Part shown: in pieces, positions 8,828 to 49,980 of the stretch
How positions within the stretch are numbered: position 1 is the first letter of the stretch
Layout: the number at the start of each line of letters is the position of its first letter
Assembly (NCBI GenBank): GCA_016176415.1
Contig: JACOXH010000017.1
Span: 1 to 57,803 of the forward strand
Source: Candidatus Daviesbacteria bacterium
GTDB taxonomy: Bacteria > Patescibacteriota > Microgenomatia > Daviesbacterales > UBA10151
Direction: 5' to 3'
DNA: 57,803 nt
Notes under the pieces: generated by a model
Databases searched by the model: none
What the model saw: the letters and a program-made list of their open reading frames with translations, nothing else
Told to the model about the DNA's origin: nothing
Translations under genes and position numbers: made by a program

Positions 8828-9268
8828 TTAAAAAGAAAAAGGTAAAGAAAGATCAGGTTTAGGGTAATTCCAATAAACTCCGTTTAACTCTTCTCTTATT
8901 TCTTCCAAAGGCAGATCTTTAATAGCGCAGCTTAAAGGCAGAAGTTCTGCGATAAAATCTGCGATATTGAAACTAGAAATTGCTTTGATACATGGGAATC
9001 TTCCAAAGGTAATGTTTCCATATACGCTGTCATCCCGTTTTTTATATCTGAAAAAGGTCTTATCCAGATCAGTATGGATACTTTCAGCGAATTTCCTGCC
9101 CTCAAAAGTGTCAAAATGGGTCAGCCATCTCGTTATATGATAAAGGTTACGTGGATTTATTTTATATTTTTCAACCAGTAAAAATGGCCGGTTGACAGTA
9201 AAAGTATAAGTTGAGACAAGGCCAAATTCTTCATAGACACCTGCCCCTTTTCTTTCAACAGTTAACAT
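8828..9268 (-). CDS. hypothetical protein
   Basis: 146-aa ORF; no motif recognised. Confidence 0.45.
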   Translation of the reverse strand: MLTVERKGAGVYEEFGLVSTYTFTVNRPFLLVEKYKINPRNLYHITRWLTHFDTFEGRKFAESIHTDLDKTFFRYKKRDDSVYGNITFGRFPCIKAISSFNIADFIAELLPLSCAIKDLPLEEIREELNGVYWNYPKPDLSLPFSF

Positions 9269-9289: not shown

Positions 9290-9655
9290 TTAAGCAATTA
9301 GTTCAAAAGTACCATCAAGGTGTAAGTAATAAGTTTCTACTTCTAAATCAGGATATTGCTCTTTAATTTTAACAGAAGCATTTTTTAAATCTTCAGCATG
9401 CTTTTGGGCTGTGCCTGTTTCCCCATAAGCCCCGCAGTCTTCGTGGTTTATTAAAACTGCTTTTTTAATGTGATGTAGTCTTTTGGAAATTTCAATCTGT
9501 TTTAAAATTCCTTCAGAATCTTTTATGCCCCCAGCCCAGGCAACTCTGTCAAAAGTTTTGGGAGAAAATTTTCCAGCAATCCAGTTATTTATATATTCCT
9601 GAAACCTAAAATCTATGCAAGTTATTACTACTGCTTCACAAGAATGATCTGACAT
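9290..9655 (-). CDS. small protein with beta-carbonic-anhydrase-like zinc-ligand motifs
   Basis: CIDFR (CxDxR) and HEDCG (HxxCG), spaced as in beta-CAs. At 121 aa it is shorter than canonical enzymes. Confidence 0.45.
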   Translation of the reverse strand: MSDHSCEAVVITCIDFRFQEYINNWIAGKFSPKTFDRVAWAGGIKDSEGILKQIEISKRLHHIKKAVLINHEDCGAYGETGTAQKHAEDLKNASVKIKEQYPDLEVETYYLHLDGTFELIA

Positions 9656-38113: not shown

Positions 38114-38794
38114 ATGCGTAAAGATCGCCACCTTGCAATACAGCTTCGACGTCAAAAGAAAAGTTATAACGAAATAAGTAATGTATTAGGAGTTCCAAAA
38201 AGTACTTTGCATGTTTGGTTTAAGAATAATCAATGGTCGTTAAAGATTAAAGAGGATTTGACTAAGAAAGCGAGAATCTTAGCTAAACCAAAGCTAAGAC
38301 TGATGGCAATGGCTAACAAGAAAAAATGGGAAAAAATACATACACAATTTCAGGATAAAGCAAAAAAAGAATTCACCTTGCTAATAAAAGATCCTCTATT
38401 TGTAGCTGGTTTAATGCTTTACTGGGGAGAAGGAGATAAGGTTTTAAAAAACTGTTTGGTAAGGTTGAGCAATAGTGACCCAGAATTAATTAAAGTATTT
38501 TATTTATTTCTTAAAAATGTACTGTTAATTTCAAAAGAAAAAATATTTATAAAGCTAATTCTTTATCCTGAGTTAGAAGATCTTGCTTATAAAAAATCCT
38601 GGAGTAATAAATTAAATATTCCGTTATCCCAATTTAAAAAGTCAGCAATCATTTTAGGGAAACATCCAACAAAACGTTTATCTTTAGGTATCTGCTCAAT
38701 TGAAGTTAGTAGTAGAAAGATAAAAGAGAAAATTATTACATGGTTTGCCTTGTATCAAAAATATATTAGTGAAAAGTATATTCATTTGGTATAA
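38114..38794 (+). CDS. HTH + LAGLIDADG-like (homing-endonuclease-like) protein
   Basis: HTH (SYNEISNVLGVPKSTLHVWF) and the motif FVAGLMLYWGEGDK. Paralogous to 24895-25497. Flanked by tRNA-Phe and tRNA-Gly. Confidence 0.5.
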   Translation: MRKDRHLAIQLRRQKKSYNEISNVLGVPKSTLHVWFKNNQWSLKIKEDLTKKARILAKPKLRLMAMANKKKWEKIHTQFQDKAKKEFTLLIKDPLFVAGLMLYWGEGDKVLKNCLVRLSNSDPELIKVFYLFLKNVLLISKEKIFIKLILYPELEDLAYKKSWSNKLNIPLSQFKKSAIILGKHPTKRLSLGICSIEVSSRKIKEKIITWFALYQKYISEKYIHLV

Positions 38795-39278: not shown

Positions 39279-39350
39279 TGCCGGATCGTCTAACGGTAGG
39301 ACAACTGCCTTTGGAGCAGTGAATTCTAGGTTCGAATCCTAGTCCGGCAA
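39279..39350 (+). tRNA. tRNA-Gln(UUG); integration target of the downstream island
   Basis: U1:A72 acceptor TGCCGGA/TCCGGCA, anticodon stem ACTGC/GCAGT, loop CTTTGGA, T-loop TTCGAAT. Confidence 0.88.
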
Positions 39351-40856
39351 CAAGGTTGGACTCGCTGGCTGTAGGGTGGCCGGATTCGCGGCGGATGGGG
39401 GCGCCGCGAGGAGAAAATAGCCACGATTTCGGTATTCCACTTGAAGTTGTTGATTGAATAAAAAGAAGTTCGAGCCGACAGTTTTTGCTCCGATACTCAG
39501 TTCGGAGCATGTATTTTTTGCGCGCGCGATTTTTGCGCACGAAAGTGCGCTACCGATAAAGTTTTTTAGTGGTTCGAGCCATTCACTGCCTTTGTCTGAA
39601 ATTTCTTTAATTCTTTGCTGAAGTGATAGTTTTTCTTCAATTAAATAGTTCTTTTTATTTTGGTATTCTTTGGAGTCAATAACTTTGTCCAAATATCCTT
39701 CAAGCAATCTGTCCAGTTTATCTTCAGTTTCCTTAAGTTCTGTTTTTAACTTCTCGATTATTCCTTTAGATTTAAGTTTTTCTTTTTGGGCATCTTCATT
39801 TGCCCATTGCCGGAATTTTTCAGCCGCATATTCTGACATCGAGGCTTTACCAACAATTTCTTTTAATTGTATTTCAATATCATCTTTCCTTGCATACTTT
39901 TGATTACATACCCCTTTTTTCTTGGAACAGCGATAGTAAATGAAATCAACAGAGTTATTGGTTCTTGGGTAAAACCTGTGATGTTTTTCCGCAGTTATGG
40001 AGCAACCGCATTCTTTGCACTTAATTAGCCCTAAAAACTCAAATTCACTTTTTAGAGATTTATTTTTTCTGTTTCTTGCTTTAATTATTTCCTGCACAGA
40101 ATCAAATAATTTCTTGGTAATTAAAGGTTTATGTTTTCCTTCGTAAAGTTCACCATTAAATCTCATTACTCCATAGTAGAAAGGATCACCTAAAATTCTT
40201 TTCATCTTGTCTTTATGAAAAATCCTGCCTCCAAAAGTCGTATTAAATATTTTATTCTTAGTAAAGAAATTTATAATATCAACATAGGTATAACCGCCTG
40301 TTGCAAACATTTCAAAAGCTTTGGCAAGATAGGGAGCATGTCTCCTATCTACATGTATACTTTTTGTACCTGAATCATTTATGTACCCAAATGGCGCATG
40401 ATTAGGCCATTCCCCTCTTCTTAATTTTTGCCTGTTACCTCTTTTAACATTCTCGGATAAATTGTCCACATAGTATTTAGATTGACCAAAGGCTATGTTT
40501 AACATGAATTTTCCCTGCGGTGTGTTATCAAACCAAAAAGATGGAAATTTTAAATCCAAAAGTTTTCCTGTATCTAAAAGGTAAATTATTCTTCCGCCAT
40601 CAATAGAATTTCTGGCTAATCTGTCAGGATGCCACGATAAAATCCCGTTAGCTTCTCCTGCCTCCAACATCCTTATTAGTTCTGCAAATTTTTCCCTGCC
40701 CGGCTTTTTGGCAGTTTTACTTTCGGTAATGGTAGTAACTATTTCTAAATTTTCTTTTTCGGCAAACTCTTTAATCTCTGCAATTTGAGCCTCAATAGAG
40801 AGTATTTGCCTGTCCGGCTCATCTGTAGATTTTCTGCAATATGCAATGTATCTCAT
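39339..40856 (-). CDS. large serine recombinase (resolvase catalytic domain + recombinase domain + zinc ribbon + coiled coil)
   Basis: MRYIAYCRKSTDEPDRQ (catalytic Ser), ...CKECGCSITAEKHH...YYRCSKKKGVC zinc ribbon. The 3' end reads through repeat X into the tRNA-Gln 3' end, so the exact stop is uncertain. Confidence 0.9.
   Translation of the reverse strand: MRYIAYCRKSTDEPDRQILSIEAQIAEIKEFAEKENLEIVTTITESKTAKKPGREKFAELIRMLEAGEANGILSWHPDRLARNSIDGGRIIYLLDTGKLLDLKFPSFWFDNTPQGKFMLNIAFGQSKYYVDNLSENVKRGNRQKLRRGEWPNHAPFGYINDSGTKSIHVDRRHAPYLAKAFEMFATGGYTYVDIINFFTKNKIFNTTFGGRIFHKDKMKRILGDPFYYGVMRFNGELYEGKHKPLITKKLFDSVQEIIKARNRKNKSLKSEFEFLGLIKCKECGCSITAEKHHRFYPRTNNSVDFIYYRCSKKKGVCNQKYARKDDIEIQLKEIVGKASMSEYAAEKFRQWANEDAQKEKLKSKGIIEKLKTELKETEDKLDRLLEGYLDKVIDSKEYQNKKNYLIEEKLSLQQRIKEISDKGSEWLEPLKNFIGSALSCAKIARAKNTCSELSIGAKTVGSNFFLFNQQLQVEYRNRGYFLLAAPPSAANPATLQPASPTLLPD
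39348..39432. repeat. repeat X, copy 1 (85 bp), abutting tRNA-Gln
   Basis: CAACAAGGTTGGACTCGCTGGCTGTAGGGTGGCCGGATTCGCGGCGGATGGGGGCGCCGCGAGGAGAAAATAGCCACGATTTCGG; a perfect inverted match to 40954-41038. Confidence 0.9.
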
Positions 40857-40953
40857 ATTTTTATTAGAAGAAAAGTTCTTTTCAGTGATTAACTAAATTT
40901 TTGCGTACACTTTTCCAATTCGTTTTTTGTTTCTTTTTATTCCCAACAACTTC

Positions 40954-41038
40954 CCGAAATCGTGGCTATTTTCTCCTCGCGGCGCCCCCATCCGCCGCGA
41001 ATCCGGCCACCCTACAGCCAGCGAGTCCAACCTTGTTG
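40954..41038. repeat. repeat X, copy 2 (inverted), fused to repeat Y (attP-like Y-X junction)
   Basis: Exact reverse complement of 39348-39432 by my base-by-base comparison. Preceded by a short relic of a recombinase 3' end (..FFLF..RNRGYFLL..). Confidence 0.9.
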
Positions 41039-41127
41039 GCGCTTTACAAAAAAATTCGAACGCATTTTCAATCGACGCATTGACTCGTCGCCATCCCGAC
41101 CTCCCGTTGTTTTCTACCTTAAATGTT
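41036..41127. repeat. repeat Y, copy 1 (92 bp, minus orientation)
   Basis: The reverse complement equals 49710-49801: AACATTTAAGGTAGAAAACAACGGGAGGTCGGGATGGCGACGAGTCAATGCGTCGATTGAAAATGCGTTCGAATTTTTTTGTAAAGCGCCAA. Confidence 0.9.
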
Positions 41128-41227
41128 ATTCCGATTCCGTTCCGCAAAACTGTCGGCTCGAACCCCCGCCACAGCGGGGCAAAAAACGCAAAAATTTTAA
41201 AGAACTTTTCAATTTTTAACTATTGAG

Positions 41228-41599
41228 TTAAACAGAATAGTTAAAATATTTTGATTCATCATGGTCATAAATTGCTATAGAATTTGAATTCACATTTCCG
41301 GAAAAATGTTTGCTGCTATCATAATCATAACCTGTAAAGTTTGCTTCAGAAAATGAAATTGAAATATGCTTTCTGTTACCAAAATGGTAAAGAGAATAAT
41401 TGGCACCGTCGCCAGAACCACTTATATGGCACCTCATTTCATAATCATAAACAGAAATATTGATACTGGATACGTCTCCTCCAATAGAGAAGTATCTTCC
41501 TTCCAAGTAGTCATATATAGAAGTTGCTCCTGACTGAGAAATAATCTGCCCAGCGATGTAAGCAACAGCTCTTCGTGTATGGGTTTTAATCTTAATCAC
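41228..41599 (-). CDS. hypothetical protein with four internal YDY/HF-type repeats
   Basis: 123 aa; recurring motif S.YDY....(H/Y)(F/I)SG. The GTG start overlaps the stop of the upstream mini-ORF (GTGA). Confidence 0.5.
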   Translation of the reverse strand: MIKIKTHTRRAVAYIAGQIISQSGATSIYDYLEGRYFSIGGDVSSINISVYDYEMRCHISGSGDGANYSLYHFGNRKHISISFSEANFTGYDYDSSKHFSGNVNSNSIAIYDHDESKYFNYSV

Positions 41600-41721
41600 C
41601 TCCTTTTTCTTTTAACTTGTCTTAGTGCGCTTCCTGCTACTGATTTCTCTTTTTTCCTTGATAGATCCTTTTTAAGTAACTTAGATGCTAATTTACCAAC
41701 TCTTTTGCTTGTAACTGCCAT
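41596..41721 (-). CDS. possible 41-aa highly basic mini-protein (below the ORF-track cutoff)
   Basis: Own translation MAVTSKRVGKLASKLLKKDLSRKKEKSVAGSALRQVKRKRR. Strong Shine-Dalgarno AAAGGAGGA 7 nt upstream; stop coupled to the next gene. Confidence 0.35.
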   Translation of the reverse strand: MAVTSKRVGKLASKLLKKDLSRKKEKSVAGSALRQVKRKRR

Positions 41722-41738
41722 TCTAAAATCCTCCTTTC

Positions 41739-41768
41739 TTGACAACGGGTCAATATTTATACTACAAT
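41739..41768 (+). promoter_or_regulatory. putative promoter plus palindromic operators upstream of the XRE gene
   Basis: TTGACA (41739-41744), 18 nt, TACAAT (41763-41768). It overlaps the perfect palindrome ACAATATTGT, followed by TTGTAAtatttTTACAA. Confidence 0.4.
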
Positions 41769-41794
41769 ATTGTTGTAATATTTTTACAACACCT

Positions 41795-42193
41795 ATGAAA
41801 AAAAGTCAAGATACAAATTTGCAAACCTTCGGAGAATTCTTTAGACAAAAACGATTATCTTTAGACCTTACTTTAAGGCAGTTCTGCGAAAAATATCATT
41901 ATGACCCGGGTAATATCAGCAAGCTTGAAAGAAATATCCTATCCCCAAGCATAGATGAAGAAAAGCTTGAGGGTTATGCTTTAGCTCTGAAAATTTCTCG
42001 GGATACCTCTGACTGGACTACCTTTTTTGACCTCGCGCATACAGCTAAGGGAACTCTCCCCACTGATATCAGGAGAAATCCCGACATGCTGTCAGTCTTA
42101 CCAGCCTTCTATAGAACGGTTAGAGGGAAGAAGTTGGATCGTAAAAAAATAAATGAATTGATTAAGTTGATTAAAGATAATCATGGTAAATAA
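41795..42193 (+). CDS. XRE-family helix-turn-helix regulator
   Basis: FGEFFRQKRLSLDLTLRQFCEKYHYDPGNISKLERN is a typical HTH_XRE. ATG at 41795 chosen downstream of the promoter (the track ORF starts at 41579). Confidence 0.75.
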   Translation: MKKSQDTNLQTFGEFFRQKRLSLDLTLRQFCEKYHYDPGNISKLERNILSPSIDEEKLEGYALALKISRDTSDWTTFFDLAHTAKGTLPTDIRRNPDMLSVLPAFYRTVRGKKLDRKKINELIKLIKDNHGK

Positions 42194-42780
42194 TGCAACC
42201 CCCGAATATAACCCTTTCTAATGTTATCAGAGCCTCAGAAGATTTTCTTGAACAATTTCATTCGACACTCCTGTTGCCTATTCCTATAGAAGAAATTGTT
42301 GAGCTAAAAATGGGTATTGCTTTAGTTGTTATTCCGGGAATTAAGGATTTAATAGGGGTAGATTCTTTCATTTCAGCTGACTTTTCGCAAATTACAGTTG
42401 ACGAATATTCTTTTACTACATATCTTGAGAGGACGAGATTTTCGATAGCACATGAGATAGGTCATTATATTCTTCATAAGGATTGGTATGAACAAAATGG
42501 TCCGAAAAGTATCGAAGATTATTTAACTTTTTATGATCGAATAGATTCAGAAGTTTATAAATATTTAGAGATTCAAGCACAGACTTTTGCCGGTTTGGTG
42601 TTGGTTCCCAAAGAAGCACTATTAAAAGAACTTAAAAACAAAATGGGGTATGTTCCGACTCAAGAGGCACTAGAGATTTTTGCTCCTGTATATCAAGATT
42701 TGTTGAATGCTTTTCAGGTTTCAGGGGAAGTTTTATTAAGAAGATTGCAAAAAGACGGAATAGTAAAGAATAATTTTTAG
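42193..42780 (+). CDS. ImmA/IrrE-family (COG2856-like) zinc metallopeptidase
   Basis: HEIGHYILH (HExxH) motif. The start overlaps the XRE stop (TAATG), the classic XRE-ImmA pairing. Confidence 0.75.
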   Translation: MQPPNITLSNVIRASEDFLEQFHSTLLLPIPIEEIVELKMGIALVVIPGIKDLIGVDSFISADFSQITVDEYSFTTYLERTRFSIAHEIGHYILHKDWYEQNGPKSIEDYLTFYDRIDSEVYKYLEIQAQTFAGLVLVPKEALLKELKNKMGYVPTQEALEIFAPVYQDLLNAFQVSGEVLLRRLQKDGIVKNNF

Positions 42781-42836
42781 AATCTTTAGAACTTGAGATA
42801 CTTTTCTTCAAATTTGCTATACTTCAGAAGTTGTTT

Positions 42837-43787
42837 ATGAAATTTAAAAAGGTTCTTGTATATAACATTGATAGGTCAAAAAGTTTAGATCTAATATCCT
42901 GGAAGAAAATAGAAAGTCTGGGAAATAAAATAGTTTTTCTTCCGAAAGATAACCCCCGTTTTAGAAAGGAATTAGCTGATACAGATTGTCTTTTAGTGGC
43001 ATTTGCAACAAGTGTTGATAAGCAAGATTTAGACAGTGCGCCGCAATTAAAATACATCGGGGTTGCGGCAACTGCTTTTGGAAAGATTGATACAACCCAT
43101 GCAAAAAAGAAAGGAATAATTGTCTGTAATTTAAAAGGATACAGTACAGAATCTGTTGCAGAATTTATCATTGCTGTACTTTTGGAAAATATCAGGGGTT
43201 TGGAAGAAGGAAAAACTAGAGGAAGATCAGGAAGCTATTCAGAAGCGGGAATATCTGCTTTTGAAATAAAAGATAAAATCTTTGGCATTATTGGTTTAGG
43301 AGATATTGGTAGAAGAGTAGCTGAAATTGCTCAAGGGTTTGGAGCAGATGTGAGGTATTGGTCAAGAAACAGAAAAACAGATTATGAGGAAAAAGGTGTT
43401 ACATATGAAGATTTGGATAGGTTAGTTGAAGAAGCAGATTATTTATCCATAAATCTTGCGCAGACAAAAGATACTGAAAAGATTTTTAATCAGTCCAGAT
43501 TTCAAAAACTAAAAAGCGGAGCAGTAGTAATAAATACCTGCCCTATGGAGTTGATTGATATTGACGCTTTGGAGCAAAGACTAAAAAAGGAAGACATTAT
43601 TTTTATTCTTGATCATTCTGATGAAATGCGAGAGAGTGATTTAAAGAAATTATCAAAATATGAAAACTGTATTATTTATCCTCCCATGGCATATATAAGC
43701 AAAGAAGCAGGAGAGAACAGAAAGAGAATATTCATTGAAAATATAGAGGCTTTTTTAAAAGGAAAACCCCAGAATGTTGTTAATTAA
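42837..43787 (+). CDS. D-isomer-specific 2-hydroxyacid dehydrogenase family protein
   Basis: NAD-binding GIIGLGDIGRRVA plus catalytic-domain layout. ATG at 42837 preferred over the TTG at 42831. Confidence 0.8.
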   Translation: MKFKKVLVYNIDRSKSLDLISWKKIESLGNKIVFLPKDNPRFRKELADTDCLLVAFATSVDKQDLDSAPQLKYIGVAATAFGKIDTTHAKKKGIIVCNLKGYSTESVAEFIIAVLLENIRGLEEGKTRGRSGSYSEAGISAFEIKDKIFGIIGLGDIGRRVAEIAQGFGADVRYWSRNRKTDYEEKGVTYEDLDRLVEEADYLSINLAQTKDTEKIFNQSRFQKLKSGAVVINTCPMELIDIDALEQRLKKEDIIFILDHSDEMRESDLKKLSKYENCIIYPPMAYISKEAGENRKRIFIENIEAFLKGKPQNVVN

Positions 43788-43795
43788 TTATTAAA

Positions 43796-44191
43796 ATGAA
43801 TGATGATTTAAAAAAAATTATTGAAAGTAGTACTTCTGAAGTAATACCCGGAAGGTTTATCTATGCCAAAGTATCAGAGGCTCCACAAATTAACAATCAC
43901 TTCTTGGTAAGCAAAGACAAAGATGAGATTACAGTTGTTACAGAAGAAAAAAACTTGGAAGGTCTTAAATTAATTGAGAAGAATAAAGACTACTGGGCTT
44001 TAATTGCTCTTAATGTTTCTGCCCCTTTTTATTCCGTAGGTTTTTTAGCAGCTGTAAGTTCTGCTATTGCAAAAGAAATTAAGGATGTTTTAATTGTTTC
44101 AACTTATTCAAAGGATTACATTCTAGTTCAGTATGATTTTTTAGAAGGAGTTAAAAAAGTTTTATTATCTTTAGGATTTAAGGAAAAATGA
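43796..44191 (+). CDS. small ACT-like (ACT_7/DUF2241-like) ligand-binding domain protein
   Basis: 131 aa; the pattern ...GRFIYAKV...WALIALNV...VSTYSKDYILV... resembles ACT-fold proteins. Weak call. Confidence 0.45.
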   Translation: MNDDLKKIIESSTSEVIPGRFIYAKVSEAPQINNHFLVSKDKDEITVVTEEKNLEGLKLIEKNKDYWALIALNVSAPFYSVGFLAAVSSAIAKEIKDVLIVSTYSKDYILVQYDFLEGVKKVLLSLGFKEK

Positions 44192-45054
44192 AATTTAAAG
44201 TAGTGCTTCTTCAAATTAATACTGGAACCGATCAAAATCAAAACCTAGAAAAAGGGTTGGAATATTGTAAAAAAGCGAAGGGGCTGGGAGCTGATTTAGT
44301 TTTATTTCCTGAGATGTGGAGTATTGGGTATGAGGCCTGTCCTTTTGATGAGGAAGGCAAAAAGATATGGGAAGAAAAAGCAATTGATCAGCAAAGTGAT
44401 TTTTTCTTCTCTTTTGTAAATCTAGCCAAAGATTTAGAAATAAATATTGCCCTAACATATCTGGAAAAATATGCTCCAAAACCCCGTAACAGTGTTTCAG
44501 TAATAGATAAAACAGGGAAGATAGTTTTGAACTATTCCAAAGTTTTTATTTGTAATTTTGGATTAGAGCAGTTGTCAGAAGAAAATCCTGATTATGAACA
44601 AGTTGGTGTTGATCGCAATTTAATAGCAGGTACAACTTTCGATGTTTGCACATTAACCGGAAAAGAAGGAGAGGTTAAATTGGGAGCTATGATTTGTGCT
44701 GACAGAGAATTTCCGGAATCTGCAACAGAACTCATGTTAAAAGGGGCAGAAATAATTGTAGTGCCAAACGCCTGTACCATGGATGATATAAGAATTTGTC
44801 AGCTTAAAACCCGTGCTTTTGATAATTTAGCTGGTATTGCTTTAACTAACTATCCAAAACCAAAAGAAAATGGGCATTCAATTGCTTTTCATCCTGCTGC
44901 TTGGGATAGTAAAGGGAATCCTCAGGATACATTAATTGTAGAAGCTGGTGAGGAAGAAGGAATATTTTTGGCTGAATTTGATTTAGATCAAATTAGGGAT
45001 TTTAGAAAAATGGAGCAATGGAGATTGAAGTATAGAGAAGAATATCATAAATGA
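44188..45054 (+). CDS. carbon-nitrogen hydrolase (nitrilase/omega-amidase superfamily)
   Basis: E-K-C triad context: LVLFPEMW..., ...YSKVF..., ...GAMICADREFPE. Start overlaps the upstream stop (ATGA). Confidence 0.8.
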   Translation: MKFKVVLLQINTGTDQNQNLEKGLEYCKKAKGLGADLVLFPEMWSIGYEACPFDEEGKKIWEEKAIDQQSDFFFSFVNLAKDLEINIALTYLEKYAPKPRNSVSVIDKTGKIVLNYSKVFICNFGLEQLSEENPDYEQVGVDRNLIAGTTFDVCTLTGKEGEVKLGAMICADREFPESATELMLKGAEIIVVPNACTMDDIRICQLKTRAFDNLAGIALTNYPKPKENGHSIAFHPAAWDSKGNPQDTLIVEAGEEEGIFLAEFDLDQIRDFRKMEQWRLKYREEYHK

Positions 45055-45911
45055 GTTTTGTTGATACTTTTGTAAAAAATCATCCCATTCAAAAGTTAGA
45101 AGTAGATAAAACAATTGGAGAATATATTGTTGGAGGTAAAGGGAAAATTGGGTTTTTAATTTTTCCGGGAGGTGGGCAAGATGCACTTTCCTGTTTTGAT
45201 CTGATAGATACTTTTGAGAAAAATTACAAAGTTGTCGCTGTGAACTTTGCAGGGTTTTCTAACCTTTCAACTTTTTTTAATTTTATAAATCAGATTTTGA
45301 AAAAAGAGAGAATTGAAAAAGTAATTGTTTACGGATTATCAGTTGGCGGATTTTTAGCACAACATTATGCAATAAATAATTCTGATAAAGTATTGAAAAT
45401 AATTATTTCTCATGCCGGTTCAACAAGATCTAAAACTATTCAAAAAAGAGTCATTCTCCCCGGAAAAGTTTTACACTTTTTTCTTCCGGTTATTCCAATT
45501 TCATTATTAAAATGGTTAGTTAAAAAATTCAGTGGTAGAGTTCAGTCAGGGCAATCAAATATTAAAAAACTTTATTTAAAATATTCAACAAAAGAAAACT
45601 TTGATAGAAGATCAGAATTTGCAAAACAGTTTGGATTAAATTTTTTAAACAGAAAATATTTAAAGTCTTTCTACAATCTGGGAATGGAGATTCAAAAAGA
45701 AGAAAAAGGGTGGGATAATAAAAAATTAAATGAATTAAGCAAAAAGATGTTGATTATAAAAACTGATAATGACCCATTGGCTCAAGATGATGGAATTTTT
45801 TCCGAATATTATCTCCATGCCAGAATTCATGTATTCACAGATACAGGTCATCTAACACCATTCATCCAATTTGAAAATATGGTAGAGATTATTAAAGAGT
45901 TTTTAAAATAA
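45051..45911 (+). CDS. alpha/beta-fold hydrolase
   Basis: Nucleophile elbow GLSVGG and C-terminal ...DTGHL... Start overlaps the upstream stop (ATGA). Confidence 0.7.
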   Translation: MSFVDTFVKNHPIQKLEVDKTIGEYIVGGKGKIGFLIFPGGGQDALSCFDLIDTFEKNYKVVAVNFAGFSNLSTFFNFINQILKKERIEKVIVYGLSVGGFLAQHYAINNSDKVLKIIISHAGSTRSKTIQKRVILPGKVLHFFLPVIPISLLKWLVKKFSGRVQSGQSNIKKLYLKYSTKENFDRRSEFAKQFGLNFLNRKYLKSFYNLGMEIQKEEKGWDNKKLNELSKKMLIIKTDNDPLAQDDGIFSEYYLHARIHVFTDTGHLTPFIQFENMVEIIKEFLK

Positions 45912-45921
45912 GCAGAAAGAA

Positions 45922-46686
45922 TTAGGGATTTTGTTGAGCAGAATTAGAAGCAGGAGGATTATATACAGGAGCAGGGGGGTTTTCAGGAAGAGTAATATTT
46001 AAAGGATAAACTTCAGCATTTTCTATAACATAAGGAGTCCAGGTTAGATTGCCTTTGACTACTGCTTCATTGATCTTTTTTAAATTAATTAAAGAAGCTG
46101 AGGGTTTAAAGTATAGAGTATAGACAGAATTATCAGGTAAAAGCAGCTGATATTGTCCGCTGCCGGTAGTTTGTAAAATTCCCTGATGGGCTGTTTGTCT
46201 GTGCAGGATTGGTGAAGAGTATGGGAAGAAATATTCTATCCCGTTTTGTATGGGGCCGTTGGTGGTAATAAGATAAATGGCAGAAACAAGAGTCAGGAAT
46301 CTTTTGATAGTCATTTTCTTAAAATAATTAATAATATAACCTAAGATTTTTCTCCAAAATGAAGGTGCAGAAACAGTTTGAGGAGCCGGATCCTGAGGAA
46401 TATGGTCAGTAGCAAATCTCCCATGAGAATCTCTTAATTTATGTTGAGCTACTTCTGAATATGTAGCGTGATGGGGATCTTCAGGGAGGTTAGGGGTGTT
46501 CGGGGGATTTGGGGTGGGAGGAGTTGGAGGTTGAGGAATTGGTTGTTGAGGTTGTGGCGGTGAAGCATATGGATTGTTTGGGTCAGGAGGGTTTGTGTGA
46601 GGACTGAAAGTAGAACCAAAAAGTGGAGGTGGATTATTGTTGTTTCCGTTGTTTGGATTTGATGGATCATTGGGCAGATTATCCAT
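45922..46686 (-). CDS. hypothetical protein: proline-rich N-terminus, one TM helix, C-terminal globular domain
   Basis: ~100 aa of P/N/Q low complexity (PPTPPTPNPPNTPNLP), then FLTLVSAIYLITT. Confidence 0.5.
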   Translation of the reverse strand: MDNLPNDPSNPNNGNNNNPPPLFGSTFSPHTNPPDPNNPYASPPQPQQPIPQPPTPPTPNPPNTPNLPEDPHHATYSEVAQHKLRDSHGRFATDHIPQDPAPQTVSAPSFWRKILGYIINYFKKMTIKRFLTLVSAIYLITTNGPIQNGIEYFFPYSSPILHRQTAHQGILQTTGSGQYQLLLPDNSVYTLYFKPSASLINLKKINEAVVKGNLTWTPYVIENAEVYPLNITLPENPPAPVYNPPASNSAQQNP

Positions 46687-46805
46687 GTCTTCAGTATACT
46701 CTCAAGATAATTTAAGGTGCAACTCTGTATCCAGGTCAACTCTAGCTTCTAACCCATAGTTATTGACTTCCTTGAGCTAAAGGAGTATAATTCTACCTAT
46801 TAAAT

Positions 46806-48299
46806 ATGAGTAGAGAACAAGATCAAGTCTCCCCTTTACCGATGGGTGATGGGCTAACGAAATCTGCTTTATCCGCCAAGGAAGTCAACTCTAAATACCA
46901 TCTTCAACATTTGGGTGTTGGATTAGATACAATCGTTGCAAAAATAAATGATTCTATCACTGCAGAGATTGTAAGCACATCTCCCCCTATTGTTTCGGAA
47001 ACTTACATGCTTAATGATCCAACGACTTTTGATGCCGTAGACAGTGAAATTAGGGATTTTGTGAGAAGGGACAATGAGCGTTCATCCTTAACAACGAAAA
47101 AGGCAATTGCAAGGGCACATCTAATAACCAAGCAATTCCGCCAAGTTGTTAGTCAATTCTATGAACAATACGCCCTAGCACAAGAAGGCCGAGCTGCAAA
47201 TGAGGCAGTAAATCATTTTCTTGGAGAAGGAGCAGTAGTTCTTCATATGGTTTTTGATACATCAATTCGATTAGGAGGCTTTTTCGAATGGAACTATTAT
47301 ATTGAAACTATTCGAAGGGCTCGGAAAAGAGATCCGGAGGAATATCCAGTTGATATAGACCCGGAAATTGCTGAAAAGAAATTAGACGGTTTAAGAGAAA
47401 AGCTTGGTGAAGCAGAAAAACAATTTCCTCAAAAAATTGCAGATGGATTGAAACAAAATAGCTACCAAGGAGTTGTGCAACTAGACTTTACAAAAGAAGG
47501 GAAAGCTTCAGAGGTCTTTCCAGTTGCTCCAGAAGTCAAGAAAAAAGTAGATGCTGAGTTTCAGGAAAGCATTTTACGCTTTGAAAAGCACACCCCAAGT
47601 GATTTCTATTTAATGGCTTCAGATTACTTCAGTAGTTTTTCCAGAAAACTTGTCGTTATAGTTGATGGATATGGCAGAAATGCAAGAGAAAATGGATTTT
47701 TGGTGGCCCAATATTTCCCTCATGCAGGATACAGAGGATTAGGACTAGTTGTAATGAGAGCCTCAAATCAAGAGTGGAATGCTGATAGTGGTTATGGTTC
47801 CATCTGGGCACCATGCCATCCTCAAAAACCAGGTAAGCTGAATCTAAATCCTAAATGGAAAGATTTTAGATTTGAAAGTGTCAGGTCTGAAACTTTTCTG
47901 AAAGCATTGGATTCTGCAATTCAAAGAGGAAAAACAGGAGAAAGAGTTTGTATTAGGGCACCGTTTGGATATGGTAAAACAACGGCTCTTATGGCGCTTA
48001 ATGATTCTTTAATTGATTCCGGGAGAGAAGATACTAAAATTGCAACGGTTGAGGAAAACGGAGCCATAAGTAACTTAACAACTAAATTTATTGCGAGAGG
48101 GAAAATAAATCGAGAAAACTTAGAGACTAGTCTTGGAAATGCAAAAACCTTAATTTTGGACGAAGCCGGTAGATTGGAGGCACAACCGGAAACAAAAGCT
48201 TTTATTACGGATTTAGAAAACTCCGGAGTTCAAGTTCTTAGGATTTATCCTGGTGACATAGAACCACCTAAAGATTTGTTGGTAATGCAGCTTCAATAG
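46806..48299 (+). CDS. hypothetical protein with a C-terminal minimal P-loop NTPase module
   Basis: Walker A FGYGKTT and Walker B LILDEAG in the last ~130 aa. The N-terminal ~360 aa is unrecognised. Confidence 0.55.
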   Translation: MSREQDQVSPLPMGDGLTKSALSAKEVNSKYHLQHLGVGLDTIVAKINDSITAEIVSTSPPIVSETYMLNDPTTFDAVDSEIRDFVRRDNERSSLTTKKAIARAHLITKQFRQVVSQFYEQYALAQEGRAANEAVNHFLGEGAVVLHMVFDTSIRLGGFFEWNYYIETIRRARKRDPEEYPVDIDPEIAEKKLDGLREKLGEAEKQFPQKIADGLKQNSYQGVVQLDFTKEGKASEVFPVAPEVKKKVDAEFQESILRFEKHTPSDFYLMASDYFSSFSRKLVVIVDGYGRNARENGFLVAQYFPHAGYRGLGLVVMRASNQEWNADSGYGSIWAPCHPQKPGKLNLNPKWKDFRFESVRSETFLKALDSAIQRGKTGERVCIRAPFGYGKTTALMALNDSLIDSGREDTKIATVEENGAISNLTTKFIARGKINRENLETSLGNAKTLILDEAGRLEAQPETKAFITDLENSGVQVLRIYPGDIEPPKDLLVMQLQ

Positions 48300-48336
48300 A
48301 GATTATTTTTCTGGCAGCTTTCGCTGAAATCCTAAT

Positions 48337-48945
48337 TTAAGATTGCAAGACTTTGTTTACATCATTTAATAACTGATCAAATTTTGTAAATCCGCTTTTT
48401 GTATTAAAATGTCCGGCATTTAGTACAAAATTTAATTCTATTCCCAGATTTTTTGCAAGCTTCTTGCCGTTTCCAAGGGAAACATAATTGTCATTGTCTG
48501 AATGAAAGACTGAAAAATATTGAGCATTCTTTTTTATAGATTCCCAGTCAAAGGCAAAACCACTGAATGCTTCATCCCGATCATAGTTTAAAATAGGTTT
48601 AACTCCGACAGGTGTTCCTACGAAAAAAGCAGCTTTAACAGGATGCTTTAATTGTTCCAGTACCCGCAGAGTAAAAATACCGCCTAAGCTATGTCCAATA
48701 AGAATAGTATCCTCGTTGATATACTTCTTGTAATCCTTTAAAACATCAAACCATTCGTCTATTTTTGCCGGTATCACCGGCGGTGAGGGGAATTGCGGAA
48801 CAAAGACTTTGCAGCCTTTTTCTTCCAGTTTCTGTTTTAACCACGGAAACCAGTTTTCTTCAGGATATCCTTCTGTTCCATGAAAGATAAACAAGTTTGT
48901 TGCTGGTGCAATGAAAACATTTGTTCCCGCCGGATTTTCTGTCAT
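48337..48945 (-). CDS. alpha/beta serine hydrolase (YdeN-like family)
   Basis: FIFHGTEG...GHSLGG...HSDNDNYV...AGHF pattern. Confidence 0.7.
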   Translation of the reverse strand: MTENPAGTNVFIAPATNLFIFHGTEGYPEENWFPWLKQKLEEKGCKVFVPQFPSPPVIPAKIDEWFDVLKDYKKYINEDTILIGHSLGGIFTLRVLEQLKHPVKAAFFVGTPVGVKPILNYDRDEAFSGFAFDWESIKKNAQYFSVFHSDNDNYVSLGNGKKLAKNLGIELNFVLNAGHFNTKSGFTKFDQLLNDVNKVLQS

Positions 48946-48974
48946 GCCAAAATTATAACAAAAGTAATGGACTT

Positions 48975-49440
48975 TGTTTTCCTGGCGGCTTCCGCCGCCC
49001 CCGCAAAGTCAAAGTATAAAGACCCGTCACTGAGGGCAGCACCATTAGAAGGAGTGTTTCTTTAGGAATTCAGAAAAACTAAATTGGGTGCTGCCCGAAT
49101 ATTCGCGAACCCGCCAAACGTTACTTCGGAATTTAAAAAGGGCGGGTGAGCCATCGGAAGGTGATAGCGGCATGGACACAGAACAGGGTAAAAATTGCGG
49201 CGGGGGCGAAAGCGGAATACCCCCGCAACGGCAGGCGGTTCATATACAGATTAAAAGGGAGCGAGGGTGTATGTCTTCATTATAAACAGCAGAACTATAA
49301 TCCCGCAGCGAGGTAGAGACTGTACAGACTTAATCGAAGACGAAGATATCGGAAAAGCCCCCCTTAGGGGGCTCTCTCGCCGAGCGAGCAAAGCGAGCGA
49401 CAAAGCGGGGGTGCCGCCACATCTATTTTATTGGGTGGGT
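48975..49440 (+). ncRNA. candidate large structured non-coding RNA region (unclassified; strand tentative)
   Basis: GC-rich in an AT-rich genome, with no credible ORF. Many perfect helices, e.g. GGGCAGCACC(49034)/GGTGCTGCCC(49088), ACCCGCC/GGCGGGT, GCGGGGG/CCCCCGC, GCCCCC/GGGGGC, GTCTTC/GAAGAC. Confidence 0.3.
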
Positions 49441-49465
49441 GGGATGTTGAGGATTAGAACCAAAG

Positions 49466-49576
49466 CCACAATTTACCACAACTCCACAATTTGTGGACTT
49501 TTGAAGCTAGTTACCACAATTATGGTCCACAATTATTCATTGTGGTGATTAGATTGTTACAGCAAGCCAATTGTGG
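49466..49576. repeat. iteron-like cluster: 8 copies of CCACAAT/ATTGTGG
   Basis: Direct copies at 49466, 49476 (CCACAAC), 49484, 49514 and 49527. Inverted copies at 49491, 49539 and 49569. One pair forms TCCACAATTTGTGGA. An AT-rich tract follows at 49577-49620. Confidence 0.75.
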
Positions 49577-49709
49577 TATTAAATAAATATTGTAAATATT
49601 AAAATATTGTTTGTAATTGCTTGTCCCGCCGCAGCGGGACTATAATAAAAAAAATCGCGCGCATTCTGTCTTTCTGTCTTTGCAAAAAATACTTGAAGCG
49701 GGACGGAAT

Positions 49710-49801
49710 AACATTTAAGGTAGAAAACAACGGGAGGTCGGGATGGCGACGAGTCAATGCGTCGATTGAAAATGCGTTCGAATTTTTTTGTAAAGCGCCA
49801 A
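49710..49801. repeat. repeat Y, copy 2 (plus orientation), at the right end of the island
   Basis: Exact inverted match to 41036-41127. Contains the hairpin CGACG..CGTCG and a T7 run just before the junction. Confidence 0.9.
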
Positions 49802-49821
49802 TGTAGATCGCAAGCTTTGCT

Positions 49822-49833
49822 TAGTCCGGCAAC
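49822..49833 (+). repeat. direct repeat of the tRNA-Gln 3' end (att-like)
   Basis: TAGTCCGGCAAC matches 39340-39351. The following TTT matches the flank of the third copy. Confidence 0.7.
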
Positions 49834-49965
49834 TTTGAATGAAAACCTTTTTTAAGGAGGTTTTCAGTTCAAAATTTCGGTAAGGGATTTGTAACTGCGT
49901 AGTCCCGAGTGAAGCGAGGGACAAGACTGTTCGTTATTCGAGCGATTAGCGAGAATACGGGATTA

Positions 49966-49980
49966 TCCTAGTCCGGCAAC
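49966..49980 (+). repeat. second direct repeat of the tRNA-Gln 3' end (att-like)
   Basis: TCCTAGTCCGGCAAC is identical to 39337-39351. A 146-bp remnant lies between the two repeats. Confidence 0.7.

Follow-up and report, generated by a model that had tools for sequence, protein, structure and literature searches.

An inverted internal attachment site in a tRNA-associated serine recombinase island of Candidatus Daviesbacteria

Results

Two modules framed by exact inverted repeats

The window, that is, the whole stretch of 57,803 nucleotides of a Candidatus Daviesbacteria contig analysed here, contains a tRNA-Gln(UUG) gene on the forward strand (positions 39279 to 39350/51; ARAGORN; Rfam tRNA, 64 bits), which is met by the 3′ end of an apparently intact large serine recombinase (LSR) gene on the reverse strand (39339–40856). 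The 505-residue product shows the resolvase catalytic, recombinase and zinc-ribbon domains expected of an LSR (Pfam Resolvase, PF00239, 6e-22; Recombinase, PF07508, 2e-13; Zn_ribbon_recom, PF13408, 2e-7) and contains all invariant residues of alignment A1, in which the YCRKST..R motifs are invariant. Homologues at E ≤ 1e-20 number 7923 among 8000 candidates scored, and an exact look-up of the recombinase in public assemblies returned nothing on record. The other large component of the locus is an 8.6-kb cargo module (41134–49703), for which domain annotation gives an HTH and ImmA/IrrE pair, a 2-hydroxyacid dehydrogenase, an ACT-domain protein, a CN-hydrolase, two alpha/beta hydrolases and a weak STAND-like NTPase. 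No replication gene, no rolling-circle, relaxase or single-stranded-phage gene and no candidate directionality factor was recognized among the cargo annotations.

A repeat finder recovers two exact inverted repeats at this locus. The 85-nucleotide repeat X (39348–39432) has its reverse complement X′ at 40954–41038 and brackets the recombinase gene, just as an earlier note on this DNA had reported; with one mismatch the arms extend to 88 nucleotides (39345–39432 and 40954–41041). The 98-nucleotide repeat Y (41036–41133) is matched at 100% identity by its inverted copy Y′ (49704–49801) on the far side of the cargo. Repeats of 85–98 nucleotides in 58 kb cannot have originated by chance. X starts within the last 3 nucleotides of the tRNA-Gln(UUG) gene, and the core CAA is common to three junctions, at 39348–39350, 41036–41038 (as TTG) and 49799–49801; the junction sequences are tagtccggCAAcaaggttgg for J1, gtaaagcgcCAAcaaggttgg for J2 (reverse complement) and gtaaagcgcCAAtgtagatcgc for J3. 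The junctions had been described as sharing a central AA: a common core does stand at all three, but because this core is CAA, the crossover dinucleotide is either CA or AA, and AA is not obligatory. Beyond Y′ lies flank O (49802–49980, forward strand), in which two relics of a tRNA-Gln 3′ end (49822–49833 and 49965–49980) enclose a 131-nucleotide unit; similar relics with a unit of ~125 nucleotides also occur in three related loci (L041, L068 and L074).

The recombinase reading frame crosses X and stops inside the tRNA gene (..LLPD*), its last ~28 codons being encoded by X on the reverse strand. This coding role of X, already proposed from the window, is borne out in related loci, where the frame is open through the X arm in 51/51 cases, against 23/51 and 10/51 for the other two frames. 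The sequence preceding the second X copy had been interpreted as a relic of the same C-terminal coding region. The similarity is real (ttctttttatt..caacaacttc, with a 9–11-nucleotide indel), but it represents an imperfect extension of the repeat and not evidence of a second gene, because in related loci a copy of this short T-rich motif stands beside each of the two X copies.

Several small motifs accompany the repeats. X contains a hairpin, TCGCGGCG-cccccatc-CGCCGCGA (39386–39409, reverse strand; second copy at 40977–41000, forward strand), whose stems covary and whose loop, CCCCCAYC, is conserved among the arms of many loci. Within the recombinase gene lie the tRNA T-arm-like motif B (TGTCGGCTCGAAC, codons KTVGSN; 39468–39480, reverse strand) and the near-palindromic motif A (AATCGCGCGCGCAAAAAA, codons KIARAKN; 39514–39531, reverse strand), of which an A-like copy adjoins the distal Y′ at about 49640–49665. 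On the cargo side of the junction of X′ with Y (41151–41198, forward strand) are found a second copy of motif B (41151–41163), which follows the proximal Y in almost all loci, a G+C hairpin (41164–41179) and motif IR3 (41184–41198). The inverted partner of IR3 is held by the 97-nucleotide region upstream of the recombinase (40857–40953, reverse strand), with aaatttttgcgt at 40896–40907 and aaaagttctttt at 40872–40883. A promoter and terminator scan returned promoter-like hits less often than it did in shuffled sequence, and none usable upstream of the recombinase gene; a search of the window and seven related loci against Rfam 15, including the Y–X unit and the arms, recovered only tRNAs and rRNA, and the predicted fold of 40900–41230 has a weak z-score of −2.4.

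A standard layout among related loci

The locus was compared with 80 related loci from independent, mostly Patescibacteria assemblies made with different assemblers and including complete chromosomes (L005 and L019). X brackets the recombinase gene in 63 of the 80; X pairs of at least 70 nucleotides number 51, of which 39 are at least 97% identical, and Y brackets unrelated cargo of 0.6–9 kb in at least 40 loci, the cargo being wholly different from one locus to another. A unit like X′–core–Y precedes the recombinase gene in 63 of the 80 loci as well. The internal Y–X copy, for which the earlier note had proposed a comparison of homologous loci, occurs in almost all related loci whose surroundings are long enough to judge, and the elements lacking it that were to point to an artefact were not seen. 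In most related loci the internal site ends 39–126 nucleotides upstream of the start codon, and it remains intact across recombinases that are only about 47–50% identical. The cores shared by the junctions measure 1–15 nucleotides, mostly 4–8 (40 loci), and at least 12 tRNA species are targeted (Gln, Leu, Lys, Tyr, Glu, Arg, Trp, Pro, Ser, Gly, Val and Ile). The three-site layout is the standard design of a family, neither a one-off nor an assembly artefact, and its recurrence tells against the one-off nested or tandem insertion in opposite orientation that had been considered for the window.

The X arms differ by 16–18% between related elements and by 0–1% within one element, suggesting that the two arm copies evolve in concert, an argument that assumes an ancestral layout for loci whose orthology is not established and whose flanks and cargo differ. 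How closely the two X copies agree in a given locus is not coupled to how closely the two Y copies do (100% versus 87% identity in L051). Some loci form arrays: L090 and L094 contain the series Y-B-IR3→ORF→A-B-X′/Y-..., and L095 contains direct units. A phage origin of the family was considered and dropped on finding only four relatives in IMG/VR.

Attachment sites of one serine-recombinase system

In LSR attachment sites, attB and attP half-sites share an outer motif, which is shifted outward by about 5 bp in attP (PMC11722253). In the family studied here, the modal position of TCGAAC is +12 from the crossover in the tRNA half-site and +16/17 in Y (n = 47 each), and with this offset the half-sites fit the LSR model. 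Here the B-type half-site (T) is supplied by the T-arm and acceptor 3′ end of tRNA-Gln. In L051, an element of the same layout splits the recombinase gene of another element, and the split gene reads ..FMLSI/AFGQ.. from one side of the insert to the other, all bases being accounted for and none added; this insertion and the CAA of the three junctions show a conservative exchange at a short core without target duplication. The motif offset, the shared core and the L051 insertion support the earlier proposal that the three junctions correspond to attL, attR and attP of one serine-recombinase system in one molecule: tRNA/X is attL (arm X, 39348–39432; core CAA, 39348–39350), Y′/O is attR (arm Y′, 49704–49801), and X′/Y is a complete, inverted attP (40954–41133, forward strand), composed of X′ (40954–41038), the core TTG and Y (41036–41133).

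The internal site itself appears to have been used for integration in L065, whose recombinase is 92% identical to that of a standard locus, L064. There, tRNA-Trp is linked to the upstream attP; the tail keeps an intact second attP, which differs from the first and has a core of the Ser type. In two further loci, L077 and L014, the core of the internal attP matches another tRNA than the occupied one. LSRs bind all att sites, and the SPbeta integrase can synapse two attP sites (PMC3556126, PMC11722253).

Orientation of the modules

Wherever the junction is readable, in about 47 loci, the 3′ end of the recombinase gene abuts the tRNA gene, and the cargo module has a single orientation in 40/40 loci. 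The other orientation is seen only in L065 and L092, in which the recombinase is directed the same way as the tRNA or X side, with its tail into Y; L092 is a short contig that possibly follows an ambiguous graph path, and L065 is an exception with unlike arms. Frequent inversion is not supported by these comparative data, nor is the suggested invertible recombinase cassette as a frequent switch.

Discussion

We favour, with moderate confidence, the view that positions 39348–49801 constitute one integrated mobile island of about 10.45 kb, a member of a large CPR/Patescibacteria family, whose internal attP would act as an operator and a spare site. The data strongly support a family LSR that takes the T-arm and acceptor-end DNA of a tRNA gene as the right half of attB and recombines this site with the attP X′/Y, the short core being identical to the last tRNA nucleotides and the products being tRNA/X (attL) and Y′/O (attR). 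They also support two modules, recombinase and cargo, that run outward from a second complete attP inverted between them, an arrangement that explains why X and X′ surround the recombinase and Y and Y′ the cargo. Excision by attL and attR would produce a circle in which two inverted attP copies part two arms. Relative to either end the internal site points the other way, and its core is not a palindrome; a conservative exchange with an end site would therefore turn a module around but never cut the island in two, so that recombinase and cargo would remain linked. The most likely roles of the internal attP may be two, a res-like operator bound by the recombinase directly upstream of its own gene and a spare, usable attP. 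Gene conversion, rather than any selection for pairing, would keep the arm copies identical.

A circle with two equivalent attP sites as the integrating form predicts that both orientations are common, and one dominates; the model must invoke selection or flanking accessory motifs for this single dominant orientation. An operator function, for its part, needs no identity of 180–260 nucleotides with the arms. One related locus, L060, looks circular; a scaffold gap interrupts it at the internal site, its ends fall inside the repeat, and it may be a walk through the repeat graph.

As to origin, a derivation from simple circles was rejected: a single conservative integration, inversion or fusion leaves the junction types unchanged or yields direct repeats, never inverted ones. 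The inverted attP cannot first have arisen by conservative recombination. Departure of the recombinase module by itself, as a circle in which its X ends meet, was likewise discarded: the cores at the two sites are reverse complements of each other, here CAA and TTG, and mostly not palindromic.

It is conceivable, though doubtful, that the inverted attP has no function and is a frozen accident, left together with fragments of a second recombinase by an ancestral head-to-head duplication and subsequent deletions, and kept identical by gene conversion. Each module indeed resembles a simple cassette in which one arm has been replaced by an inverted copy of the other, and short reverse-complement fragments of recombinase coding sequence adjoin the distal and proximal Y (motifs A and B here; codons 29–40 or 47–53 in other clades). 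In three loci (L026, L016 and L048), decayed repeats occur together with degenerate recombinase genes. However, a useless inverted repeat of 200 nucleotides would be expected to be lost or to have its orientation scrambled, whereas the internal site persists intact across the divergent recombinases and at least 12 tRNA target species; it appears to have served integration in L065 and carries another target core in L077 and L014.

We regard as improbable a device acting on single strands, in which X would pair with X′ and Y′ with Y; the resulting three-way junction would bring the two chromosomal flanks side by side and make a double-stranded attP out of a single strand. The island would then leave and splint itself into a circle, or enter as single-stranded DNA, for example by natural transformation, without a directionality factor. 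Such a device would fit the long, near-perfect and locus-specific inverted repeats kept throughout the family, the arm hairpin, whose covarying stems and conserved loop recall single-strand origins, and the older element L027, which has lost the recombinase module between X and X′, as hairpin slippage predicts. Yet differences between arm copies carry no signal of selection for pairing: wobble-compatible changes are evenly spread over the strands (26 versus 23 in X, 25 versus 20 in Y), with no bias preserving G·T pairs, and 30–44% of the differences are transversions (38/87 in X, 19/64 in Y). The loops would span 1.5–9 kb, and the cargo lacks the single-strand functions searched for. Serine recombinases cut both strands of duplex sites, and to our knowledge no single-strand reaction by them is described. 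A broader form of this proposal, which we hold to be similarly improbable, is a serine-recombinase cassette system in CPR in which the enzyme would read the universal T-arm, the attP core would pick the tRNA, making the system retargetable by site, and the structured, ~100-nucleotide arms of the inverted attP would act single-stranded, allowing mobility without a directionality factor, for example through natural transformation. If true, the target would be reprogrammable through the attP core with the protein unchanged.

An invertible recombinase cassette, in which the recombinase or RecA would flip 39433–40953 between X and X′ as an on/off switch of mobility, is unlikely. Inversion would turn the gene from antisense to sense with respect to a highly transcribed tRNA and would swap the last residues of the protein. 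The geometry, with a core that is not palindromic, permits only inversion; the recombinase has the opposite direction in L065 and L092, and many contigs end in the repeat. These points have to be set against the constant position of the recombinase tail at the tRNA and the equally constant orientation of the cargo. The two different attP sites of L065 fit integration at the other site better than flipping, and the possible graph ambiguity of L092 weakens the second exception. In addition, the LSRs studied do not recombine attL or attR with attP (PMC3556126).

The Y–X unit might instead encode a structured regulatory or guide RNA, analogous to the IS110 bridge RNA, that directs the recombinase to the tRNA, which we consider very improbable. 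The structural part of this idea has partial support in the conserved arm hairpins with their covarying stems and loop, and the core-proximal part of attP varies with the tRNA target among recombinases of similar clade (L077 versus L069, L065 versus L064). However, the match between attP and target consists only of a short core and the universal T-arm motif, as in LSR sites read by protein, the long arms show no wobble-preserving bias, and neither the Rfam search nor the weak fold score singles out an RNA. We know of no LSR that uses RNA. Finally, it is scarcely credible that the arrangement is a one-off or was created in assembly, by joining reads of integrated and excised forms into a chimera: the source is probably a short-read metagenome assembly, the perfect 85–98-nucleotide repeats are near k-mer size and many related contigs break at the repeat, but the flanks of each repeat copy are different and specific, so the joins cannot come from shared k-mers, and the layout recurs in unrelated samples and assemblers, including chromosome-level assemblies.

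Among the closest known systems are LSR elements such as the phiC31, Bxb1, A118 and SPbeta prophages and Tn4451/Tn5397, with which the island shares domain architecture, a short core, conservative insertion, a half-site motif offset by about 5 bp and a recombinase gene next to attP. Unlike them, the island targets the 3′ ends of many tRNA genes, has an open reading frame across the attachment site and arms of 80–140 nucleotides with hairpins, contains a second complete, inverted attP and shows no evident directionality factor. In the Hin system, hixL and hixR enclose the invertible segment together with the hin gene itself, and the island likewise has a serine recombinase gene between inverted copies of its recombination site. 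Hin, Gin and Cin, however, are small invertases (~190 residues, with a C-terminal HTH) that act on 26-bp sites with a Fis enhancer and whose segments occur in both orientations in populations, whereas the island has a 505-residue LSR with recombinase and zinc-ribbon domains, repeats of about 100 nucleotides, an orientation fixed across loci (none flipped in about 47 standard loci) and the character of a mobile unit. In the yeast 2-micron plasmid, which carries FLP, the FRT sites lie in a pair of inverted repeats, and these divide the circle into two unique regions. The predicted excised circle of the island would similarly have two inverted target repeats, with the recombinase in one unique region; yet FLP is a tyrosine recombinase whose flipping amplifies the copy number of a replicating plasmid, whereas no replication genes were found in the cargo of the island and its circular form is itself a prediction.

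A site between divergent units and directly upstream of a serine recombinase gene also recalls res of Tn3 and gamma-delta, and from this placement autoregulation is plausible; res, however, serves to resolve cointegrates between direct repeats, and its sequence does not repeat the element ends. Tycheposons, other tRNA islands and integron arrays resemble the family in having small cargo islands at tRNA genes or modules separated by recombination sites, and L090, L094 and L095 are indeed cassette arrays bounded by such sites. These systems rely mostly or only on tyrosine recombinases, and the enzyme here is a serine recombinase in place of the IntI tyrosine integrase with attI and folded attC of integrons; no internal inverted attP is reported in the literature on tycheposons, tRNA cargo islands or integrons. 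The attP1 and attP2 of CTX phage are two inverted att copies able to pair in one strand into a duplex site, but they lie about 90 nucleotides apart and serve XerCD on single-stranded DNA, whereas the copies in the islands are 1.5–9 kb apart and, in contrast to those of CTX phage and to attC, bear no sequence signature of selection for pairing. The claim that no arrangement of this kind had been described was thus overstated in general, Hin and the 2-micron plasmid being precedents, but for LSR integrative elements our literature search turned up neither this family nor any serine-integrase element with an inverted attP inside it, and the layout of an inverted spare attP inside an LSR island appears, as far as found, to be undescribed.

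Serine integrases are major tools of genome engineering, and their choice of site and one-way behaviour are under active research. The family would provide a natural set of related enzymes that address at least 12 tRNA genes through the T-arm motif and a short core, which bears on retargeting. The 80–140-nucleotide perfect repeats carry a warning for metagenome assembly, as they break contigs beside tRNA genes. A conserved, unrecombined attP inside an integrated element raises questions on autoregulation, attP–attP synapsis and the linkage of modules, and the family would give a view of the movement of gene cargo in CPR/Patescibacteria, whose mobile elements are poorly known.

The island and its junctions

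The perfect inverted repeats that the earlier note had described around the recombinase gene are recovered by a repeat finder, as is a second pair. The first pair spans 39345–39432 and 40954–41041 (88 nt, one mismatch) and is exact over 39348–39432 and 40954–41038 (X and X'), and the second, Y and Y', spans 41036–41133 and 49704–49801 (98 nt, 100% identity). Between the X copies lies a 505-residue open reading frame (39339–40856, minus strand) with Resolvase, Recombinase and Zn_ribbon_recom domains, the full set of a large serine recombinase (LSR), beside a tRNA-Gln(UUG) gene (39279–39351, plus strand). With O denoting the flank beyond the island, the junctions read tagtccggCAAcaaggttgg (tRNA/X), gtaaagcgcCAAcaaggttgg (Y'/X, the reverse complement of the internal site) and gtaaagcgcCAAtgtagatcgc (Y'/O). 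All three share the core CAA, and their proposed reading as attL, an inverted attP and attR formally holds. It is strongly supported that an LSR island has integrated at the tRNA-Gln 3' end and is bounded by attL and attR.

The island lies next to a tRNA-rich region, with nine tRNA genes in 24 kb (15689–39351), of which Phe, Gly and Gln fall within the 1.4 kb directly upstream; a 226-residue HTH protein is encoded between tRNA-Phe and tRNA-Gly (38114–38794). At its start, the cargo encodes an HTH protein and, next to it, a metallopeptidase of the ImmA/IrrE type (41579–42780; best PADLOC match capP, 2e-14); in defence islands and mobile elements, such pairs often act as a switch that responds to damage. 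A weak STAND-like NTPase is encoded at 46806–48299. Directly past the island, tRNA 3'-end relics (12–43 nt) are separated by a ~125–131-nt unit with internal hairpins (49802–49980), as at three related loci (L041, 4277–4420; L068, 8351–8493; L074, 3482–3680). In L074, a 125-nt insert of this type sits inside the anticodon loop of a second tRNA-Trp copy. The unit may be a separate small tRNA-associated element.

Spread of the layout in related loci

Among 8000 candidates scored, 7923 are homologues of the recombinase at E<=1e-20; they are mostly 500–520 residues long, and those with a source name come nearly all from CPR bacteria (Patescibacteria). Their C-termini correspond to the translated reverse strand of a tRNA T-arm (..DSNP.., ..GFEP..), and the whole recombinase family is therefore arranged tail-to-tail with tRNA genes. 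Eighty related loci were taken from GTDB genomes and each scanned for repeats. An inverted repeat of the same kind brackets the recombinase gene in 63 of them, with one arm at the 3' end of the reading frame adjoining the tRNA and the other usually 39–126 nt ahead of the start codon. Fifty-one X pairs measure 70 nt or more; 39 of these reach 97% identity, with 17 perfect matches, although recombinase identity to the query is only ~47–81%. In 40 loci, the Y beside the upstream copy has its own inverted partner 0.6–9 kb away, around unrelated cargo; 35 of the Y pairs are 70 nt or longer, and 27 of these reach 97% identity. The tRNA targets include Gln, Leu, Lys, Tyr, Glu, Arg, Trp, Pro, Ser, Gly, Val and Ile. 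The remaining loci are mostly cut by contig ends, and many contigs stop inside a repeat; among many public contigs, those of L008, L023, L030, L039, L052, L078, L079 and L092 begin or end within X.

The flanking sequence of each repeat copy is specific to that copy, so the joins cannot be k-mer chimeras, and together with the bracket at related loci this removes the possibility of an assembly artefact or a one-off rearrangement. It is strongly supported that the three-site layout is a family trait, and that the island carries a complete inverted internal attP in a layout found family-wide.

Attachment-site geometry and conservative insertion

On the tRNA side, 12 nt separate the T-arm motif TCGAAC from the end of the shared core; in Y, where the motif usually occurs as GAAAAAATTCGAACnnATTTC, the distance is 16–17 nt (n=47 each). 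LSR sites are defined geometrically by an offset of ~5 bp between the half-sites of attB and attP (PMC11722253). X terminates as ..ATTTCC(N5-6)TGG.. beside the core, TGG being the reverse complement of CCA, and the shared core, mostly 4–8 nt, consists of the final nucleotides of the tRNA. Site sequence strongly supports the view that the island sites would behave as LSR sites. Locus L051 provides a before-and-after case, in which a family element lies within the recombinase gene of a resident relative and the split halves join as ..FMLSI/AFGQSKYY.. with zero bases gained or lost. Likewise, the ~870-residue 'double' recombinases returned by the protein search are in-frame read-throughs of nested insertions into recombinase genes.

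Insertion into a resident relative's recombinase gene recurs at codon ~118–123 (..FMLNIAFGQSKYY..) in L051 (508–5690), L081 (574–3225) and the homologous proteins P0002, P0005–P0008 and P0038, leaving either a split gene or a ~870-residue read-through fusion. From this recurrence, a second attB-like site that is conserved, GGAAAATTTATGCTTTCAAT/TGCCTTTGGGCAGTCGAAAT, apparently lies within the gene. Two IMG/VR viral contigs, L083 (4–354) and L084 (60–417), end with the first 117 codons of a family recombinase gene, after which the DNA is unrelated and devoid of a Y-type motif; a different kind of element seems to use nearly the same position there.

Anatomy of the element

In recombinase orientation, the standard layout left of the internal attP is O'/Y, A' or hairpin, cargo (leftward), IR3', hairpin and B'. 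It continues from B' as Y'/X, T-rich motif, IR3 and recombinase (rightward), the 3' part of which comprises hairpin 1, A, hairpin 2, B, T-rich motif and X'/tRNA'. Motif A (39514–39531) is a near-palindrome coding for KIARAKN, whereas the T-arm-like motif B (TGTCGGCTCGAAC; second copy at 41151–41163) also codes for the invariant residues KTVGSN. Motif IR3 (GAAAAACGCAAAAATTTTAAAGAAC; 41184–41198) occurs on both sides of the internal attP, pointing outward. From this arrangement, both modules begin at the internal attP and end at the integration site. All 51 loci keep the recombinase frame open across X', whereas the two alternative frames are open in 23 and 10 of them, which confirms that X encodes the recombinase C-terminus; the last residues of the protein therefore depend on sequence past the crossover.

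The arms contain a hairpin with a conserved CCCCCAYC loop (39386–39409 and 40977–41000; also L005, L007, L010, L013, L020, L022, L040, L050, L051 and others) and covarying stems, with double changes at 7 of 8 pairs among instances picked for being paired. It is always on the X'-to-Y strand; the window and some clades have it in X, other clades have it in Y, and it has no Rfam match.

Within the reading frame, the T-arm-like 9-mer GGCTCGAAC codes for two invariant peptide motifs, V-G-S-N (39468–39480, in KTVGSN) and W-L-E-P (~39570–39580), in two reading frames and at the same positions in all homologues. Hairpin 2 covaries there as well (gctccga..tcggagc in the window, gccatgat..atcatggc in L007). 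This dual use and covariation suggest that constraints at the nucleic-acid level act within the 3' coding region. A ~90-nt sequence absent from the window is shared just beyond IR3 on the cargo side of the internal attP in L007 (~9540–9640, minus strand), L010 (~9530–9640, minus strand), L087 (~9150–9260) and L095 (~2140–2250), the last two in recombinase-tail-scan orientation. With three mutually compatible pairings (ggccgcc/gacggcc, gtactcag/ctgagtac and cctttcggg/cccgaagg) and no Rfam match, it could be a pseudoknotted RNA.

Identity of the arm copies

In related elements, X differs by 16–18% between genomes but by 0–1% within a genome, and the copies therefore evolve in concert. X-pair and Y-pair identities are uncoupled in single loci (100% versus 87% in L051, 95% versus 100% in L020), the expected product of separate conversion events. 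Where arm copies differ, transversions are frequent and neither strand is biased to G.T-compatible changes, so there is no sign of selection for intrastrand pairing. We infer that gene conversion is the most economical explanation of the identical copies.

Orientation and use of the internal site

The earlier note had also considered an invertible recombinase cassette, which is not borne out as a common event. The recombinase tail adjoins the tRNA in all loci with a readable junction, and in 40 of 40 loci B comes after the proximal Y. B alone never comes after the distal Y, which is succeeded by A' in about half of the loci and, in other clades, by another reverse-complement recombinase-gene fragment. 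A scan of JGI metagenomes for the order tail, X', Y returned nine stretches, five whose flank would fit a circle junction or integration via the other attP and four with an internal-site flank. In one of the four, L092, the recombinase gene is preceded by a perfect copy of X, which makes this locus either a flipped module or an ambiguous path. As judged from these loci, module flipping is rare at best. The core at the internal site is the reverse complement of that at the end sites, and most cores are non-palindromic; inversion is therefore the sole possible outcome of conservative exchange between the two, and the internal site can never split the island.

Variant loci show other uses and losses of sites. 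L046 is a simple cargo-less form without internal attP (O'/Y, B, IR3, recombinase, X'/tRNA-Gly); its relative L048 adjoins the same tRNA-Gly-type sequence and has the standard layout. L090, L094 and L095 are direct arrays of recombinase-less cassettes linked by X'/Y junctions. In L027 (7744–8070), an older element at a neighbouring tRNA-Gln retains its cargo, but the recombinase module that X and X' would enclose is gone; all that adjoins the tRNA is ~40 nt from X and ~20 nt from X', which looks like a deletion across the inverted repeat. The recombinase of L065 shares 92% identity with its counterpart in L064, a standard locus. Here tRNA-Trp and the recombinase gene run in the same direction, the tRNA is joined to the upstream X, and the tail carries another attP, which is intact, differs from the upstream one and has a core of Ser type. 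Recombination can therefore proceed through the upstream attP. The internal attP core in L077 (Val) and L014 (Leu-CAA) is that of a tRNA other than the occupied one. That the internal site can be used for integration is strongly supported.

Proposed mechanism and relation to known systems

The circle produced by excision would hold two attP copies in inverted orientation. The internal site, being inverted, would keep recombinase and cargo linked. It probably doubles as an operator that binds the recombinase, immediately upstream of the gene, and a spare attP that in some loci has the core of another target. All att sites are bound by LSRs; SPbeta integrase brings two attP sites into synapsis but does not recombine them, and A118 integrase recombines attP x attP at <5% of the attP x attB rate (PMC3556126, PMC11722253).

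By its enzyme and its sites, the island qualifies as an LSR integrative element. It resembles Hin and the 2-micron plasmid in having a recombinase between inverted sites, Tn3 res in the position of the internal site, and tycheposons and integrons in its tRNA-linked cargo arrays, but lacks defining features of these systems; in the comparison with the 2-micron plasmid, no replication genes were found. Literature searches returned no account of this recombinase family, nor of any serine-integrase element with an inverted attP inside it. The element family is widespread in CPR bacteria, where it is a systematic cause of assembly breaks beside tRNA genes, and is relevant to serine-integrase and mobile-DNA research.
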